DNA of 63,423 nucleotides from Longimicrobiales bacterium (GCA_965197725.1 CBDANQ010000020.1:1-63423); one strand, 5' to 3'. Positions 42,001 through 48,000 are shown, counted from the stretch's first letter. Program-made: the numbers.

Positions 42001-45000
42001 TGGCACTGAGATGGGCCGCTGCCTCCTTCGTCGAGACCGAGAAGAACTACCGACGCATCGTCGGCTTCGACCAACTCTGGATGCTCAAAGCTCACCTCGA
42101 TGACCGCGAGCCGGTTGCCGAAATGAAGATGGCAGGTTAATCACGAAAGCCTCGGAGTCACCACCTTCAACTGAGCCGGGGACACCTTCGCTTGATTGGC
42201 TAACTTAAGCCCCGAAGGAATCCGACAGGCCGTCCGCCGATGAGCCTGTGATCCGGGCCAACCCCGTAGCGATGTGCTGCTGGTTCAGCCCACCCTTTCG
42301 CCTCATGAGCGATCGAGCCTTAAGTTGTCCCAACAGTGTGCAGTACAACACGGAGAGGCGTGCCATGAGGTCCGTGACGCGACTGGCTGGGGCTTTCGCG
42401 GTGCTGGTAATAGCAGGGTGCGGCGGCAGCCAGCTCTTGTACTGGGATGATGCGAACCTACAAAGGATCTCTCCCGGATGGAGCCGACAGCAGTTTTTGG
42501 GCCAATGGGCCAACCCCGACCCCAACGCCCAGGTCGTGCAGCCGGTCCTACGGGCAGCGAAGAACGACCAGGGCAAGGTCACCGAGGTGTTTACGCTGGA
42601 CATGAGGGACCAGATGAGGGACCAGAATAGGCAAGCGACGACGTACTGGTTCGTTTTCGAGGGCGGCGTCCTACGACAATGGGGACGCCCTGGGGACTGG
42701 GCGCAGGTGGCTGCGACCTATGACATCAACTTCAATCCTTTCCAGACCGTCAGAACCCCGTTCTAACTACGGGAGCGCCGGAGCCGCCGCGCTAGGCGAG
42801 GTTAGGCCACCTCGTCCTCTCGACCATCCACCAGACCGACTGTACCGCAGAGCCCCAGCGCGCTGCTCGAGTCCTGTCGCCGGAGTTGAAGCGACTCGTA
42901 CGCGAGCTATGCCCTCCCGGCCTCGCCGGGAGGGCGGAAACGCAAGCCGCCCGAAGGGGCGCCGCCCGCATGAGGCCCACCTGCTGCTTGAGAGGAGGGC
43001 TTTACTCGTGGGAGCCGAGCCTGTAACCACCCGGCTTGTTTGGGAGCGCGATGCGACGCACGGCAGCAGAAGAATTCGTGCGACGATCAACGAGGTGGGA
43101 CACCTCGAGGAGCGACCCCATACGGACGGTCCTTTCACCGCTGCGGTTCGGGACCGTTTTCACGGCGCTTGGTGAACCCATCAGGCGGACATTGCAACCG
43201 TAGGCCCGCCACATCAGATCCTCTCCATGTTTCAGGTACGCTCGGAGGATCGCTCCAGACCGCGGTCCGTGCCGTACGCACTTCGACGTAGTGCGTACGC
43301 ATGATTACGTAGAGCTACCGGTGGGCCTACATAGGTGTAGAACCGCGGCCCGAGGTCCATGGGGGGCTGCGTGCTGTTTAAGTGTCAGTCCGACCGCGTG
43401 TTACGACAGTCTCTGCGCGATCCACACGGTCCTGAAGATCGCAGTGCCCAGAGTGCCAATCGTGATGAGGCCCAGGACCCCGAGGAGCAGCGTGCCGGAG
43501 TGCCACGCCATCAACAGCGTCGCCGTGGGGTCGAACAGCGCGGCGAATCCGACGAGGAGCAGCCGTTCCGCTCGCTGCATGATGCCTAGTTTGCACAGGA
43601 CGCCCACGCTCTCGCCGCGCGCCCGCGTATAACTGACCAGCAGCGAGCCGCCCAAAGCCGTCACGACCAGCGTCAGCGCCAAGGCCGACTCCCGGAAGAG
43701 CACGGCCAGTCCGACGAAGGCGCCGACTTCGGCAAAACGATCGAGAGTGGAATCAAGGAAGGCTCCGCGCTCGTTCGCCATGTCACGCGCCCGCGCGATG
43801 CGTCCGTCGAACACATCTGCCGCCCCCCCGAGCAGCACGCCCCAACCGCCGAGGGTCACGTGACCCGTCGCGAACGCGACGCCGGCCCCGATCCCTAACG
43901 CGACCCCGAGCACGTTGAAGAACGTGGGCGAGATCTTCAGGGCGAGGGAGAGCCGCACCAGGGGCCCGATGAACCAATAGAACCAGCTGCGCACGAAGTC
44001 CCCGAGCACGAAGCTGCCGCGATCAACCACTTCCTCCGGATCCGCGGTGGTGCGGGCGGCGCTCAACGCGTACACCGGCATCGTGGCAAGCGCGAGCCCG
44101 AGCACACCGAGCAGGACGGCGAGGTCCGGCGTCACCGGGAGACCTCTTTCGGCGGTCGAGTCAACAACACCTTGATCGCCCGCGGCCACAAGAAGATGAG
44201 TGGAAGTCGTCTCTCAAGTCGGGTGAGCTCGATGCGCTCACCGCGATGCCGCTCCACCTTGCGGACGACGTAGGGGAGCCAGTTGGCGAAGGTCGCCATG
44301 TGCTTGAACCATCTGACAGTTGCTCGGACCTTGGACTTCCGAAAGTGCCGACGCCACTTCCGCCGCAATGCCGCCGACGCTGGCCGGGCCAACTCGTAGG
44401 TAGTGAGCGCCCCCGGGTGGTCCCCCTCGGTGCCGATGCGCTCGACGAGCACGCCCTGCTTCACGCCGCGTGCCAGCACAGAGCCGAAGTGCTCTCGAAA
44501 GTGATCGGCCTGGCCTTCGAAGATCCGGGCCGCGCGCTGTCCAGACTCGGGCCGTAGCTCGCCCCGATAGCACACTTCCAGCATGCGTCGGCCCAGTCCC
44601 TCCGCATCGAGCGGCGCGTCGAGGTACGGCTCCAGCCATTCCAGAACCCGGTCACGGGCCGAAGCCAACAGCTGCTCGACCCACTCGGCGTCGTTTGGGG
44701 TCGCGCTGTAGACCGGACCGACCTTCTGAACCAGCCGGCCGAGCAGGAAGTGATCTGGAGGATTCGGCCCCAACCCCCGCTCCAGATGGGCGCGGCTCAC
44801 GATGATGCACTTGGCGATCCCGTTGCGGGCGTGCTCGGGGGCGAAGGCGATGGCGTTCGGTGGCAGGAACCCGGCCATCATCGAAAGCAGCCACGTGGGC
44901 CGGTGTAGTTCACCGGCGGCGTTGAGTGCGGCATAGAACCGCCGGTATTGGTCGACGATAACCACGAAATCGACCGCGCTGTGCCGGTCTGGATTCGCGC

Positions 45001-48000
45001 CCAACATGTGCGACCCATACAGCAGGATCGACCTGATGGAGCCGGCGCCAATCCCGACGAGAGCTTCGGCTAGCTCGCTGGCCGCCGAGGCTGACGCGCC
45101 CCTCACGCGACCGAAGCCCCCCGCATCTCTGCGAGGTGATCGACCATCAACTGTCGGATCTCGCAGGTGAACGCCTCGTGGTCGGCCTTCGGATCCGACC
45201 AGTCGAACACGCCCAATAGCTCGATCCGTCCCTCGAGTCCGGCCATCCCGCCGAAGAAATCGAACAACCTCGGGTAACCCGAATAGCCGTCCACCACGAG
45301 AACATGAACCCGCCAAGGACGGGACCTCAGGATGAACCGTAGACCAGTCGTCATGAACGGACCGATCTCGCCGTCCCTGGTCCGAGTCCCTTCCGGAAAG
45401 ATCATCACCGGCACCTGCGAAGCGCCGGCCCTAGCTTGGAGATCCTTCAACATCCTGCGGGCTTCGCCGGCCTTTGCCGTGGGGTTCACCACCGGGTATT
45501 GATAGAGCTTGAGCAAGTGCGAGATTAGCGGGATCCACCGCGTATAGCGCCGGCGGGTTACGATGAGGGGATACCCGCCTTCAATGCACCGCACCACGAG
45601 TGGGATGTCCACGAGTGATTGGTGGTTCATCAAGATCAGAACCCCCGGCTCGCAGGGGATCTTCAGGGGTTCGGGGGTCGAAGCTCCGCCGATCCAGGTC
45701 ATCGGTTTCGTCACCATCAATGCCAGCCATTGAAGCCAAGCGGTAAGCACACGGTGGCGGTGGGAGGGAAAGAGCCAGCCCAAGGGAACGATCAAGAAAC
45801 GCTGGATCGGATCGCAGAGCAGGATGCCCATGCAGACGACGGTGATTGCGAGGTAGCCGCGGAGCTTCAAACGAGACGCCTCTGAGAGCGCAGGACAAAG
45901 GACGATTCGCACGGACGTGCCATGGACGGCGAAGGCTAACCGATCGCGCCAACCAGCATCAAGACGAGCATCCACGTGAGCGACACGGAATACACCTACT
46001 ACGGCTTCCGAAACTGCGTCGGAGCCTTCTTCGAGATGCCCACATCGGACGCCCGCAAGCTGCTGCCATCCCACCTCGAGCCGCTGGAGATGCAGCACGA
46101 ACGGAGTATCCTCGCGCTCACCTGCTTCGAGTTCACGGAAAGCGAAGTAGGGCATTACTTCGAGATCGTGCTCGCGGTGATCGTGCCGCCGATGGTGGAG
46201 CCCGGCAAGCCGCTGCCGAAGGCTGCGTTCTTCCCGTTCTGCGTCGGGACCTCGTCGGAAGCATCGCGCTTGCACGCGATCGAGCGCTGGCATCTGCCGC
46301 ACTACATGTCGGACCTGGACATCACGATGACAGAGTCCACCGATGCGATGGAGGTCACGGTCCGGGACGGCGACACCCCCGTACTCGACTTCACCGTCAC
46401 CAAACACGAGTACGCGCCGACCAAGAACCTCTACAACGCATTCACCGTGGAAGACGGCGCCGACAGTAAGTTCAAGGCGAACATCTACATGGAGGCGCCG
46501 CACTCGGAGCATGAGGAAGAGAACGGTTCGCTCACGCTCCACGAGCACCCGATGACCGAGGGGCTCACGATCGACGACGTGAACACCTACCCGTTCCGTG
46601 AGCAGTGGTACCAAGCAGGCATGCAGACCTTCGAGCCCCTGCTCGAGCTCTGAGCGCCGTGCCGCGCCACTTCGTCATCTTCAATCCGGCGTCGGGCCGG
46701 GGGCGTGGCAGGCGGCGCATGGGAGTCTATCGGCAGTTGCTCGCCGAACAGCTCGACGATGTCACTTTCGCCGAGTCCGCAGGGCCGGGTGGAGAGGTCG
46801 CCCTCGCCGAACAGGCAGCAGCGGACGGGTACGATGTCGTCGTGGCAGTTGGTGGCGACGGCACGTTGAGCAATGTGGCGAACCGGCTCCTCGCGAAGGG
46901 ACGCGACGATCTCACGCTCGGGATCTTGCCGAACGGTACGGGTAACGACTTCGGCCGGAGCGTCGGCCTGAACCCGTCCGACGCGGGGGAGGCGGTCAGG
47001 ATCCTCGCGGCCGGCAACGTCGAGGTCGTCGACGTCGGGCGCGTCGAGACCGAAAGCGCCTCGGAACACGCGCCCGAGCACTGGGAGACGCGCTACTTCT
47101 TGAACCTGATCGGATTCGGCTTCGACATCGCGGTGATCGACGCGGCCACCGGCGCACGACTTCTCAAGGGTGAGCTGCTCTACAAGATCACAGCGCTGCA
47201 GCAACTCTTTCGCTTCCCGGGTCTCGAGCTGCGGCTGAAGAGCGAGGGCGGTGAAGAGCGCGACGGGCGATACCTGATGCTCACCGTATCGAACGCGCCG
47301 TTCTTCGGAGGCGGCTTCCCCATCGCACCGGAGGCGACTGTACAAGACGGACAGCTGCATGCGTGCCAGATCCTCGACGCACCTCCGCTTTCGCGCCTCT
47401 GGCTCTTCAACCTCGCCGAGCGCGGTCGACACGTGACCTCGGATCACGTAGAGGTGCTCGACGACAGCGGTTTTCGCATGGAGTTCTCCACCCCTCAGCG
47501 CTTCGAGGTAGACGGTGAAGTGCGGCGATCCGCCGGGCGCACGGTTGAGGCGCGTATTCTACCTGCCGCACTGAAGGTGATCGCGCCGAAGTCGACGTGA
47601 CGGGTTGCCGATTGGAAGCGAATCCTGCTACTTTGTGACGCAGAGTACTTGCTCGTGTGCGAGCCGAGCCCCATGCTACATTCATGAACTTGCCCGCCCG
47701 AAAACTCAGTGATCCCGATCGGGGGCCTGCGGCTCTACACGATCGGGCGATGGACAATCTGCGTTTCATCCGCGAGACGATGCAGCGCTCAGCGTCCTTC
47801 ACCCACGTCTCGGGGATCGGTGGCGTGCTGATGGGCCTGATCGCGATCGCCGCCGCGCTGATCGCGTCCCGGGCCGCCGGTGCCACGGAGTGGGTAATGA
47901 CGTGGCTCGCGGCTGCGGTCAGTTCCCTTGCGGTCGCCACGCTCTTGATGGCGCGAAAGTCCGCTGCCGCCGGGGAGGGGCTGCTCACGGGCCCCGGCCG

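Follow-up and report, generated by a model that had tools for sequence, protein, structure and literature searches.

A candidate CDP-lipid route to an inositol-phosphate-capped sphingolipid in a Longimicrobiales gene cluster with a Tam41-fold protein

Prediction of bacterial sphingolipid producers relies on Spt, bCerS and CerR; an Spt-like gene with neither bCerS nor CerR nearby is found in many genomes (PMC11334938). In Caulobacter crescentus, cpgA-cpgB-cpgC-spt (CCNA_01217-01220) encode the ceramide phosphoglycerate (CPG) pathway (PMC9393093, PMC11324152, PMC12275187). A Longimicrobiales genome raises the question of which lipid would be made by a cluster that combines an acyltransferase, a Tam41-fold protein and a CDP-alcohol phosphotransferase with an acetoacetate-decarboxylase (ADC)-fold protein and a lipid kinase. 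An earlier note had read it as a six-gene, undescribed route to phosphosphingolipids through a CDP-lipid. We analysed the window, the whole stretch of 63,423 nucleotides, together with the rest of the genome, which is 88.9% complete. The cluster is real, and its genes and divergent order are as the note described them. Five genes lie within 43401-47600; the sixth, an Spt-like gene, is unlinked here and sits beside a second ADC-fold gene on contig C8, where the note had placed both. The features are as follows.

43401..44135, minus strand: g00614, CDP-alcohol phosphotransferase of the PIP-synthase (PIPS) type, 244 aa
44132..45106, minus strand: g00615, Tam41-fold, CpgC-related candidate cytidylyltransferase, 324 aa
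45103..45870, minus strand: PlsC-family acyltransferase, 255 aa, with an inferred TTG start
45871..45975, no strand: divergent intergenic gap, 105 bp, the Spt-like gene's place in most relatives
45976..46653, plus strand: g00617, ADC-fold protein without the conserved lysine, 225 aa
46659..47600, plus strand: g00618, YegS/DgkB-type lipid kinase, 313 aa
C8:14037-15461, minus strand: Spt-like gene, given as a stop-to-stop frame
C8:13384-14050, minus strand: second ADC-fold gene, paired with the Spt-like gene
9108..10379, minus strand: Zn-dependent, threonine-dehydrogenase-like reductase, a weak and unlinked candidate for 3-keto reduction

The three minus-strand genes overlap at GTGA start/stop junctions, and a search of the 105-bp gap found no sigma-70 consensus promoter. 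In most relatives the Spt-like gene occupies this gap, upstream of the ADC-fold gene. The low count of Spt-like genes inside the cluster given in the earlier note arose because close relatives had been sampled; it does not hold phylum-wide: when 36 genomes from across the phylum were sampled, 25 of their 37 loci had the gene inside. Among metagenome loci of at least 9 kb found with the ADC gene, the Spt-like gene is in the cluster in 1 of 33. One public contig covers the whole stretch with 0 differences and may be the source of the assembly.

The best solved match of the Spt-like protein is an SPT (E 1.5e-81), as reported earlier. The protein has the GTFSKS PLP-lysine motif of the Caulobacter and Sphingobacterium Spt, and its AOS catalytic residues are invariant (H173, D243, H246, K277, R398). 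Its two housekeeping paralogues have GTLGKA, and GTFSKA replaces GTFSKS in 7 of 25 cluster copies. The protein stays under all three NCBIfam Spt cut-offs (342.7/640, 332.2/500 and 270.4/670 bits), and in the NCBIfam comparison bioF scores above Spt. In a 13-row tree it groups with canonical Spts at only 80/86 support, and a placement with KBL-like proteins could not be rejected (p-AU 0.087). From its sequence, the Spt assignment is a soft one.

Its ADC-fold partner would be an unusual companion. The g00617 model (pLDDT 94.8; PF06314, 38.9/29.8 bits) has the fold of the acetoacetate decarboxylase superfamily (3bh2, MppR, Swit_4259; Z 19-22, with 21.7 to 3bh2). That superfamily has a conserved Schiff-base lysine, whereas 26 ADC-fold sequences contain no invariant or nearly invariant Lys; His109 occupies what we take to be the position of that lysine, and many acidic and His residues are invariant. 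A further difference is its predicted binding to an oxoamine-synthase dimer. The predicted complex with the Spt dimer scored 0.76 against 0.02 for the best control, on a scale with a mark that 116 of 157 solved complexes attain, along with 2 of 215 mismatched pairs; this calibration applies only roughly to our own alignments and a dimer. Contacts agree by at least 90% between runs and the partner pLDDT is at least 90; conservation at the predicted interface does not clearly exceed that of the remaining residues (p 0.45 and 0.08). The model suggests that the ADC-fold protein likely binds the Spt-like enzyme, an accessory role for which we found no description in the literature.

A fresh model of g00615 (pLDDT 84.4) again shows the Tam41 fold, an NTase plus a winged helix. 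Its top five Foldseek matches are the Tam41 structures 7ecd, 6ig4 and 6ig2 (best E 5.6e-7), and VIA-align gave Z 20.9 to 7ecd (rmsd 3.2, 244 aligned), then 16.2, and 10.6 to the next, non-Tam41 structure. In line with the earlier note, g00615 does not reach the gathering cut-off of PF09139 (Tam41/Mmp37); many of its distant homologues do pass, and a profile of the more distant ones matches 6ig2 (E 9.7e-12). The family shares the YGS, single-Asp, Lys, GR and Y-G-x-x-R motifs of Tam41, with Y30-G31-S32, D46, K99, G123-R124, G182 and R185 invariant in 45 of 45 sequences. It differs from Tam41 by its 10-14% identity, by Ala44 in place of the first Asp and Gln127 in place of the Lys of GRFxK, and by a genomic neighbourhood suggestive of a sphingoid substrate. 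g00615 is, in addition, distantly homologous to Caulobacter CpgC, with reciprocal profiles: the g00615 family profile matches CpgC in 48 of 51 Caulobacter-type loci, and the CpgC profile has g00615 as its sole match in the genome (E 3.2e-21). Here, Caulobacter cpgC was recognised because three published cpgC primers matched it exactly. The two proteins are 21% identical and fall into separate clades (SH-aLRT 100 in a quick tree of 39 rows). Caulobacter cpgC mutants lose CPG and retain ceramide phosphate (PMC9393093), and a bacterial Tam41 produces CDP-DAG (PMC11646218). Fold, motifs and kinship make g00615 a candidate CTP:lipid-phosphate cytidylyltransferase. Because g00615 is homologous to CpgC, for which an NDP-ceramide step is in print as a proposal only (PMC11324152), the CDP-lipid step cannot be called undescribed, as the earlier note did, having missed both this homology and the likely Spt/ADC-fold complex; its phosphosphingolipid route remains the best reading, strengthened by new co-occurrence and context data.

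The candidate head-group transferase g00614 (PF01066, E 4e-10) shares with bacterial PIP synthases (5d92, 6h53; PMC4634129) the CDP-alcohol signature DxxDGxxAR...G...D...D and both inositol-phosphate arginines, found in 16 of 16 family sequences. R191, R235 and S168, likewise invariant (16/16), correspond to R155, R195 and S132 of the M. tuberculosis enzyme, R235 being aligned within 5d92 and lying immediately beyond the aligned part of 6h53. The family profile matches solved PIP synthases at E 3.7e-25. Unlike those enzymes, g00614 lies below the NCBIfam PIP synthase cut-offs (88.7/170 for NF045883, 115.6/180 for NF040950), and its donor lipid is probably other than CDP-DAG. We consider inositol-1-phosphate its candidate acceptor. 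It is the only PIPS-like gene found in the genome. In another genome (G158) a 62%-identical orthologue is flanked by bCerS on one side and a CpgC-type gene on the other; CerR comes next and CpgB faces the group. This neighbourhood links the transferase family with ceramide genes. INO1 does not discriminate, since 280 of 301 genomes have it.

The kinase g00618, single-copy in the genome (PF00781, E 4.7e-30; TIGR00147, 143 bits, cut-off 118.65), has DgkB as its best solved match (E 1.2e-21) and matches the CpgB profile weakly, at E 7.9e-6 over about 100 positions; it is a candidate sphingoid-base or ceramide kinase. The acyltransferase (PF01553, 52.1 bits against a cut-off of 23; under the TIGR00530 cut-off, 42.5/102.95) keeps the HX4D and EGTR motifs, with H83, D88, E160-G161 and R163 invariant in 17 of 17 sequences. 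It is present in 31 of 37 cluster loci, and in several natural proteins it is fused in frame to a Tam41-like domain. It is a candidate N-acyltransferase in place of bCerS, whose absence the earlier note had left open; in keeping with this, one genome (G112), a single case, lacks the acyltransferase and carries two bCerS-like genes. Three bCerS profiles found no match in this genome, 88.9% complete as it is, and an unfiltered profile search gave nothing at E<=1. We know of no PlsC-family N-acyltransferase, and our literature search found none in titles or abstract openings. For 3-keto reduction, 8 loci of another family encode a threonine-dehydrogenase-like Zn reductase after the kinase. The reductase at 9108..10379 matches the profile of that enzyme (E 8e-94) and is a weak candidate; homologues of comparable similarity turn up in 45 of this family's 47 genomes, cluster present or not.

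Among 301 genomes, the Spt-like and ADC-fold genes occur in an identical set of 35, and 33 of these have the Tam41-like gene. Conversely, of 37 genomes in which the Tam41-like match is strong, 33 also have Spt-like and ADC genes (33 of 36 without the unpublished G156). The genomes are related, so these counts are not independent events. Two genomes (G054, G084) combine Spt, ADC and kinase genes and lack the acyltransferase, the Tam41-like gene and the cluster PIPS gene.

Taking these lines together, we give a probability of roughly 0.55 to the reading that the cluster makes an inositol-phospho-dihydroceramide-type lipid via a CDP-activated sphingolipid, without bCerS. In this pathway, whose substrates and step order we infer throughout, the Spt-like PLP enzyme would condense an acyl thioester with serine, with the lysine-less ADC-fold protein bound to it in an accessory role, as a carrier of acyl chain or product or as a regulator. 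A 3-keto reduction would follow; in one family its probable catalyst is the Zn reductase whose gene comes after that of the kinase. The kinase would then phosphorylate C1 and the PlsC-type enzyme would put on the N-acyl chain. We slightly favour this order because sphinganine-1-phosphate mimics lysophosphatidic acid (LPA), presenting an amine where PlsC finds the sn-2 hydroxyl. g00615 could make a CDP-lipid from the lipid phosphate and CTP, the kind of reaction that Tam41 carries out on phosphatidic acid (PA) and that is proposed for CpgC, and g00614 could swap CMP for inositol-1-phosphate supplied by INO1; a phosphatase may trim the product. The complete scheme of a two-subunit Spt, phosphorylation first, PlsC-family N-acylation, CDP-ceramide and an inositol phosphate cap is a tentative one. 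If true, it would be a third way to ceramide phosphate, mirroring glycerophospholipid synthesis stepwise, and since free ceramide, bCerS and CerR would never be needed, surveys that require Spt, bCerS and CerR would miss such producers.

The same enzymes could instead serve glycerolipids, which we regard as unlikely but as the main competing explanation. The acyltransferase would convert LPA to PA, the kinase DAG to PA, the Tam41-like protein PA to CDP-DAG and the PIP synthase CDP-DAG to phosphatidylinositol phosphate, an ordinary product, with the phylum's housekeeping PIP synthase replaced; the Spt-like/ADC pair would be separate or optional, or the enzymes would take both backbones. Every characterised relative of the four folds acts on glycerolipids, the bacterial Tam41 among them (PMC11646218). 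Three genomes (G258, G213, G097) lack acyltransferase, ADC and Spt-like genes together and retain the Tam41-like and PIPS genes, two of them also the kinase, showing that the Tam41-like/PIPS module can exist in the absence of the Spt-like gene. The housekeeping PIPS paralogue, often beside INO1, is matched at E<=1e-25 in 213 of 301 genomes, and the cluster copy seems to replace it, since only 3 of 24 cluster-bearing relatives in this genome's family have a second copy. However, this genome already carries CdsA, a PgsA-like gene and another strong PlsC, the cluster acyltransferase is found only alongside Spt-like and ADC genes, CpgC, the closest genetically studied homologue of g00615, acts downstream of ceramide phosphate, and the G158 orthologue of g00614 lies among ceramide genes. 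Under the glycerolipid explanation the case would be a modest one, of a Tam41-type enzyme in phosphatidylinositol synthesis.

A product built on a non-standard backbone is distinctly improbable. The oxoamine synthase would take another amino acid, or the bound ADC-fold protein would rearrange its amino-ketone product or leave it unreduced, and the resulting amino-lipid or diol-type backbone would be phosphorylated, acylated, CDP-activated and capped with inositol phosphate. The weak Spt membership would fit, as would an obligate-looking ADC-fold partner without counterpart in the known Spt loci examined, whose invariant acidic and His residues could be catalytic, and the lack of a linked CerR or other reductase at the cluster loci of this family. 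Yet the GTFSKS motif and the best solved match are Spt-type, serine would supply the primary hydroxyl required by the kinase, and another family does have the reductase after the kinase. We consider it very unlikely that the cluster follows Caulobacter-like logic, in which an unlinked bCerS-like GNAT forms ceramide, lost from this genome or missed in its incomplete assembly, and the PlsC-type enzyme does O-acylation or LPA acylation. A bCerS-like gene is indeed found elsewhere in 13 of 35 Spt-like genomes, four close relatives among them, and, within this family, in 14 of the 24 genomes that bear the cluster (G284, G287, G290 and G278 are examples). Nevertheless, 22 of the 35 Spt-like-positive genomes and all 13 of the other family gave no match, the contexts in relatives are varied and unlinked, and the pdhC-lpdA interval, the site of this gene in G284 and G287, is assembled here without it.

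Our preferred reading, the CDP-activated sphingolipid, shares with the Caulobacter cpg locus an Spt, a DAGK-fold kinase, a Tam41-related CpgC homologue, a CDP-alcohol phosphotransferase and the proposed NDP-ceramide step. Unlike that locus, the cluster lacks bCerS, a linked CerR, a dedicated ACP and an acyl-ACP synthetase: the last three have only unlinked general homologues in this genome and were not found beside Spt-like genes in 21 annotated loci. Its kinase is YegS/DgkB-type rather than CpgB-type, its transferase PIPS-type rather than CpgA (whose profile has no match in this genome at E<=0.01), g00615 belongs to another clade than CpgC, and the PlsC-type and ADC-fold genes are additional. 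The predicted end product, PI-dihydroceramide, and the use of MIPS and PIP synthase resemble Bacteroides thetaiotaomicron BT_1522-1526, where PIP-DAG and PI-DAG are formed and the step to ceramide depends on an AUR1-like synthase (PMC9246714); here the sphingolipid itself would be CDP-activated. The cluster supplies candidates for missing steps, namely a PlsC-type N-acyltransferase, a threonine-dehydrogenase-like reductase and an ADC-fold Spt partner. A Tam41-like enzyme adjoining a PIP synthase also offers a simple linear system in which the published but unproven CDP-ceramide intermediate could be tested, and with it the way in which Caulobacter CpgC works. The earlier note had called the phylum one not known to make sphingolipids. 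That is true only of the literature searched, which contained no report of it; a published survey names 40 candidate phyla, and two sampled genomes of this phylum contain ordinary spt-bCerS-cerR loci.

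The source genome (3.0 Mb, 88.9% complete) carries the cluster on contig C20, the window, as two divergent halves separated by a 105-bp gap, with GTGA overlaps joining the three minus-strand genes. The earlier note had described a six-gene cluster. We confirmed its layout for five genes within 43401-47600, but the Spt-like gene is unlinked and lies on contig C8.

43401-44135, minus strand: CDP-alcohol phosphotransferase (g00614), candidate head-group transferase
44132-45106, minus strand: g00615, Tam41-fold protein
45103-45870, minus strand: PlsC-family acyltransferase
45976-46653, plus strand: acetoacetate-decarboxylase-fold (ADC-fold) gene
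46659-47600, plus strand: lipid kinase
Contig C8, adjoining genes: oxoamine synthase (Spt-like) and second ADC-fold gene

One public contig, which may be the assembly's own source, matches the stretch end to end with 0 differences. A promoter scan of the gap found no sigma-70 consensus promoter. Contigs from two RNA studies, derived from relatives at 90-95% identity, overlap parts of four cluster genes and leave most of the acyltransferase uncovered; we rejected them as evidence of expression.

A new model of g00615 built from 45 homologues (pLDDT 84.4) reproduced the Tam41 fold recognized previously. Foldseek matched five Tam41 chains and nothing else at E≤0.001, and VIA-align gave Z scores of 20.9 for 7ecd, 16.2 for 6ig2 and 10.6 for the next structure. 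YGS, a single Asp (D46), K99, GR and G182/R185 are invariant in all 45 close homologues of this set. Where close homologues carry a taxon name, most are from Gemmatimonadota, Longimicrobiales among them. Only one of three acidic residues is described as kept in Tam41, and a bacterial Tam41 as producing CDP-DAG (review, PMC11646218). A profile from 53 more distant homologues, many of which pass PF09139, matched S. pombe Tam41 (E 9.7e-12) and the Firmicutes enzyme (E 5e-7). The PF09139 search itself had no match in the source genome and none above the cut-off in 14 control genomes; because Caulobacter is among the named controls, this model evidently misses the branch. Natural fusions join the acyltransferase to a Tam41-like domain in several proteins and a Tam41-like domain to the transferase in one. 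Other putative fusions (proteins P0123, P0129, P0259 and P0255, from single-member or unchecked clusters) join Tam41-like domains to cytochrome P450 (two proteins), an endonuclease/exonuclease/phosphatase domain and a MobA-like NTP transferase.

On sequence comparison, g00615 is a distant homologue of CpgC, encoded in the Caulobacter cpgA-cpgB-cpgC-spt locus. The start primer and the two qPCR primers published for cpgC (supplement of PMC9393093) all match the spt-adjoining gene of C. vibrioides DSM 9893 exactly, and the g00615 family profile matched this gene with E 7e-10 in a small search, as well as 48 of the 51 Caulobacter-type spt loci compared. In the reverse search of the source genome with a CpgC profile, g00615 was the sole match (E 3.2e-21). 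Fifteen residues are invariant in g00615, two Caulobacter CpgCs and five further homologues; g00615 and CpgC share 21% identity and fall into separate clades. Genes at the cpgC position on Roseomonas plasmids match a distant g00615 homologue and follow a CDP-alcohol transferase and a kinase, with a PLP aminotransferase-family gene and an ACP gene opposite. Similar sphingolipid sets occur on Roseomonas plasmids (L032, L033), and a Pseudomonas plasmid holds a nearly complete Caulobacter-type set near intI1 (NZ_CP073662.1, L034, 1-17957): PLP synthase, ACP, reductase, acyl-AMP ligase, LptFG, kinase, CpgC homologue and CDP-alcohol transferase. A plasmid search for an ADC homologue found none.

Caulobacter cpgC mutants retain ceramide phosphate and lose ceramide phosphoglycerate (PMC9393093), and the mechanism of CpgC was termed unidentified in 2025 and 2026 (PMC12275187, PMC13228409). 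A CDP-DAG-synthase domain has been pointed out in CpgC and an NDP-activated ceramide proposed (PMC11324152); therefore, the central CDP-lipid step of what the earlier note called an undescribed route is an already published idea, as a proposal. Of the gene set as a whole we found no description in open-licence papers and preprints, nor of a route free of bCerS that uses a PlsC-type enzyme. CpgC-type enzymes, the NDP-ceramide proposal, bacterial Tam41, PIP synthases and inositol sphingolipids are already known. The open-licence literature on this pathway, searched without the ADC fold itself as a query, gave no description of an ADC-fold partner of Spt; this literature yielded no paper on 'CDP-ceramide' in a bacterial context and nothing relevant on gemmatimonad sphingolipids. 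Non-homologous replacements of bCerS and CerR were anticipated when Spt-like genes were extended to 40 phyla (PMC11334938).

The assignment of the C8 enzyme as an SPT is tentative. Among solved structures it matches an SPT best (E 1.5e-81), and it carries the motif GTFSKS (GTFSKS in 16 and GTFSKA in 7 of 25 cluster copies), at which two housekeeping paralogues differ; however, it falls under the NCBIfam Spt cut-offs, and its grouping with canonical Spts in the tree has weak support (80/86; alternative p-AU 0.087). The model of the ADC-fold protein (pLDDT 94.8) superimposes on 3bh2 with Z 21.7. Schiff-base decarboxylation by ADC needs a lysine, and because the ADC-fold protein has no conserved lysine, this chemistry is unlikely. 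A complex predicted from two copies of Spt residues 19-405 and the window ADC-fold protein scored 0.76 versus 0.02 for the best control. Solved complexes attained the score mark in 116 of 157 cases and mismatched pairs in 2 of 215, rates that apply only approximately here (own alignments, dimer). The runs shared at least 90% of contacts with a partner pLDDT of at least 90. The prediction supports binding of the ADC-fold protein to the Spt-like dimer; we know of no solved oxoamine-synthase/ADC complex, though no search was aimed at one. The modelled interface involves both Spt subunits, including the N-terminal extension (residues 20-39), and any excess of conservation there over the remaining residues was not significant (p 0.45 and 0.08). 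At this interface the C8 ADC paralogue keeps P36, E38, H41, P71, P72, E180 and R208, with H100 and H109 changed, as expected if Spt binding were its retained job.

Among 301 sampled phylum genomes, in which all co-occurrence counts come from related genomes and hence from non-independent events, the g00615 profile matched 39 (37 strongly), and Spt-like (E≤1e-110) and ADC-fold genes occur in an identical set of 35. Both are present in 33 of the 37 strong Tam41-like genomes (33 of 36 without the unpublished G156), the others being G258, G213, G097 and G156; in two more genomes, G054 and G084, the Tam41-like gene is missing although Spt and ADC are present. Across 37 wide loci of 36 genomes, excluding G156 and the weak match G102, we counted the transferase in 33, the kinase in 32, the acyltransferase and the ADC-fold gene in 31 each, and the Spt-like gene in 25, some absences being contig ends. 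The common order is PIPS<Tam41<AT followed divergently by Spt>ADC>kinase. The rarity of Spt within the cluster reported in the earlier note thus applies to close metagenome relatives (1 of 33 loci of at least 9 kb), which made the first count low, but not to the phylum. The pairing of Spt with an ADC-fold partner was upheld, as an ADC copy lies alongside the relocated Spt in all 7 such relatives examined, as in the source genome. An orthologue of the acyltransferase was present in one of 32 further genomes tested, the cluster genome G110; none was found in 21 cluster-free relatives, in three Spt-less Tam41 genomes tested, or in G112, G054 and G084.

Stand-alone extra ADC-fold paralogues occur elsewhere in genomes with complete clusters (L136 and L137 in G248, L138 in G299, L139 in G158). 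In G213, the stretch from the Tam41-like gene to the kinase and reductase, usually filled by the acyltransferase, Spt-like and ADC genes, encodes a 518-aa protein (L055, 7463-9019, minus strand) without a match in Pfam, NCBIfam or PDB. A head-group swap in G054, where Spt-ADC-kinase lies beside PlsC, GT4 and PAP2 genes, was rejected, the GT4 gene being present in 5 of 5 genomes of the genus, three without an Spt-like gene. Apparent ADC-Spt-kinase fusions were likewise discarded; the four sequences examined change reading frame along their length, as frameshifted assemblies do.

The PIP-synthase affinity of g00614 was borne out: the nearest solved structures to its family are PIP synthases (E 3.7e-25), and R191, R235 and S168, invariant in 16 of 16 sequences, align to the inositol-phosphate-binding residues R155, R195 and S132 of the M. 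tuberculosis enzyme (PMC4634129). This conservation supports inositol-1-phosphate as the probable acceptor and leaves the lipid donor unfixed. Many genomes of the phylum carry a 40%-identical paralogue, frequently no more than about 1.5 kb from INO1, the inositol-1-phosphate source, and cluster genomes mostly have the cluster copy alone (tallies including the unpublished G056, G156 and G181). INO1, often adjoining a PIP-synthase-like gene, occurs in 280 of 301 genomes and is uninformative as a marker; inositol phospholipids may be general in the phylum. Bacteroides reaches PI-dihydroceramide via PIP-DAG and an AUR1-like enzyme (PMC9246714), unlike the route proposed here.

For the reduction step, 8 loci of the other cluster-bearing family, and that of G054, carry a Zn-dependent, threonine-dehydrogenase-like gene after the kinase. 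Threonine dehydrogenase acts on the same 2-amino-3-keto/hydroxy pair. A profile from four of these nine genes matched 11 of the 70 genomes of that family, all cluster genomes (one being the unpublished G156); G039, G084 and G097 lack the reductase. Nearly every genome of the source family has a more distant homologue, away from the cluster (window 9108-10379 in the source genome); because it is present in 45 of 47 genomes, it was rejected as a cluster marker.

The absence of bCerS, which the earlier note named as untested, was checked with profiles from Caulobacter loci, Roseomonas loci and a wider set including homologues from the phylum; none of the three found bCerS in the 88.9% complete source genome, even unfiltered at E≤1. 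In G284 and G287 a bCerS-like gene lies in the pdhC-lpdA interval; the source assembly covers this interval, and the gene is missing from it. Of 35 Spt-like genomes, 22 had no bCerS match and 13 had one, with the gene lying away from the cluster wherever the locus was examined; that an unlinked bCerS makes the ceramide appears very improbable. CpgA and CpgB profiles gave no or weak matches in the source genome, where CdsA, a PgsA-like gene, another PlsC and INO1 lie elsewhere; YegS-type kinases were grouped apart from CpgB (10.1101/2023.05.01.538943). Ordinary spt-bCerS-cerR loci do occur in the phylum (L160 in G223, 2801-7426; L166 in G196, 9090-12387), in G223 besides a Tam41-type cluster. 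A hybrid locus in G158 (L067, contig C94, 1826-6746) has a g00614 orthologue (62% identity) flanked by bCerS and a CpgC-clade gene, with CerR next and a CpgB-type kinase facing them; a second contig (L068) carries the acyltransferase/Tam41/Spt/ADC/kinase cluster with the transferase missing.

We favour, at a probability of about 0.55, a route in which the Spt-like enzyme would act with the ADC-fold protein, its product would be reduced, phosphorylated at C1 and N-acylated, and the lipid would then be activated with CTP by g00615 and receive inositol phosphate through g00614. Phosphorylation before acylation is favoured because sphinganine-1-phosphate resembles lysophosphatidic acid; no precedent for a PlsC-type N-acyltransferase surfaced in the literature at the level of titles and abstracts. 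A glycerolipid route is rather unlikely in our estimate. Two observations speak for it: G258, G213 and G097, in which no Spt-like gene was found, keep their Tam41-like and PIPS genes, and the cluster PIPS apparently replaces the housekeeping one. A non-standard backbone we regard as improbable.

Several neighbouring genes may be recorded. Convergent to the C8 Spt-like/ADC pair is an ORF (11932-13122, plus strand) that may encode a squalene/phytoene synthase, judging by a motif. In the window, tRNA-Asn and a 429-aa transposase-like ORF, which we take to be IS256-like, occupy 40541-42140, with a same-start ORF on contig C1 near 16130-17443; more transposase-like ORFs lie at 50411-52757. Downstream of the kinase on the same strand (47657-49451, plus) are genes for an unannotated membrane protein of 214 aa, a winged-helix regulator and a member of the undecaprenyl-diphosphate synthase family.
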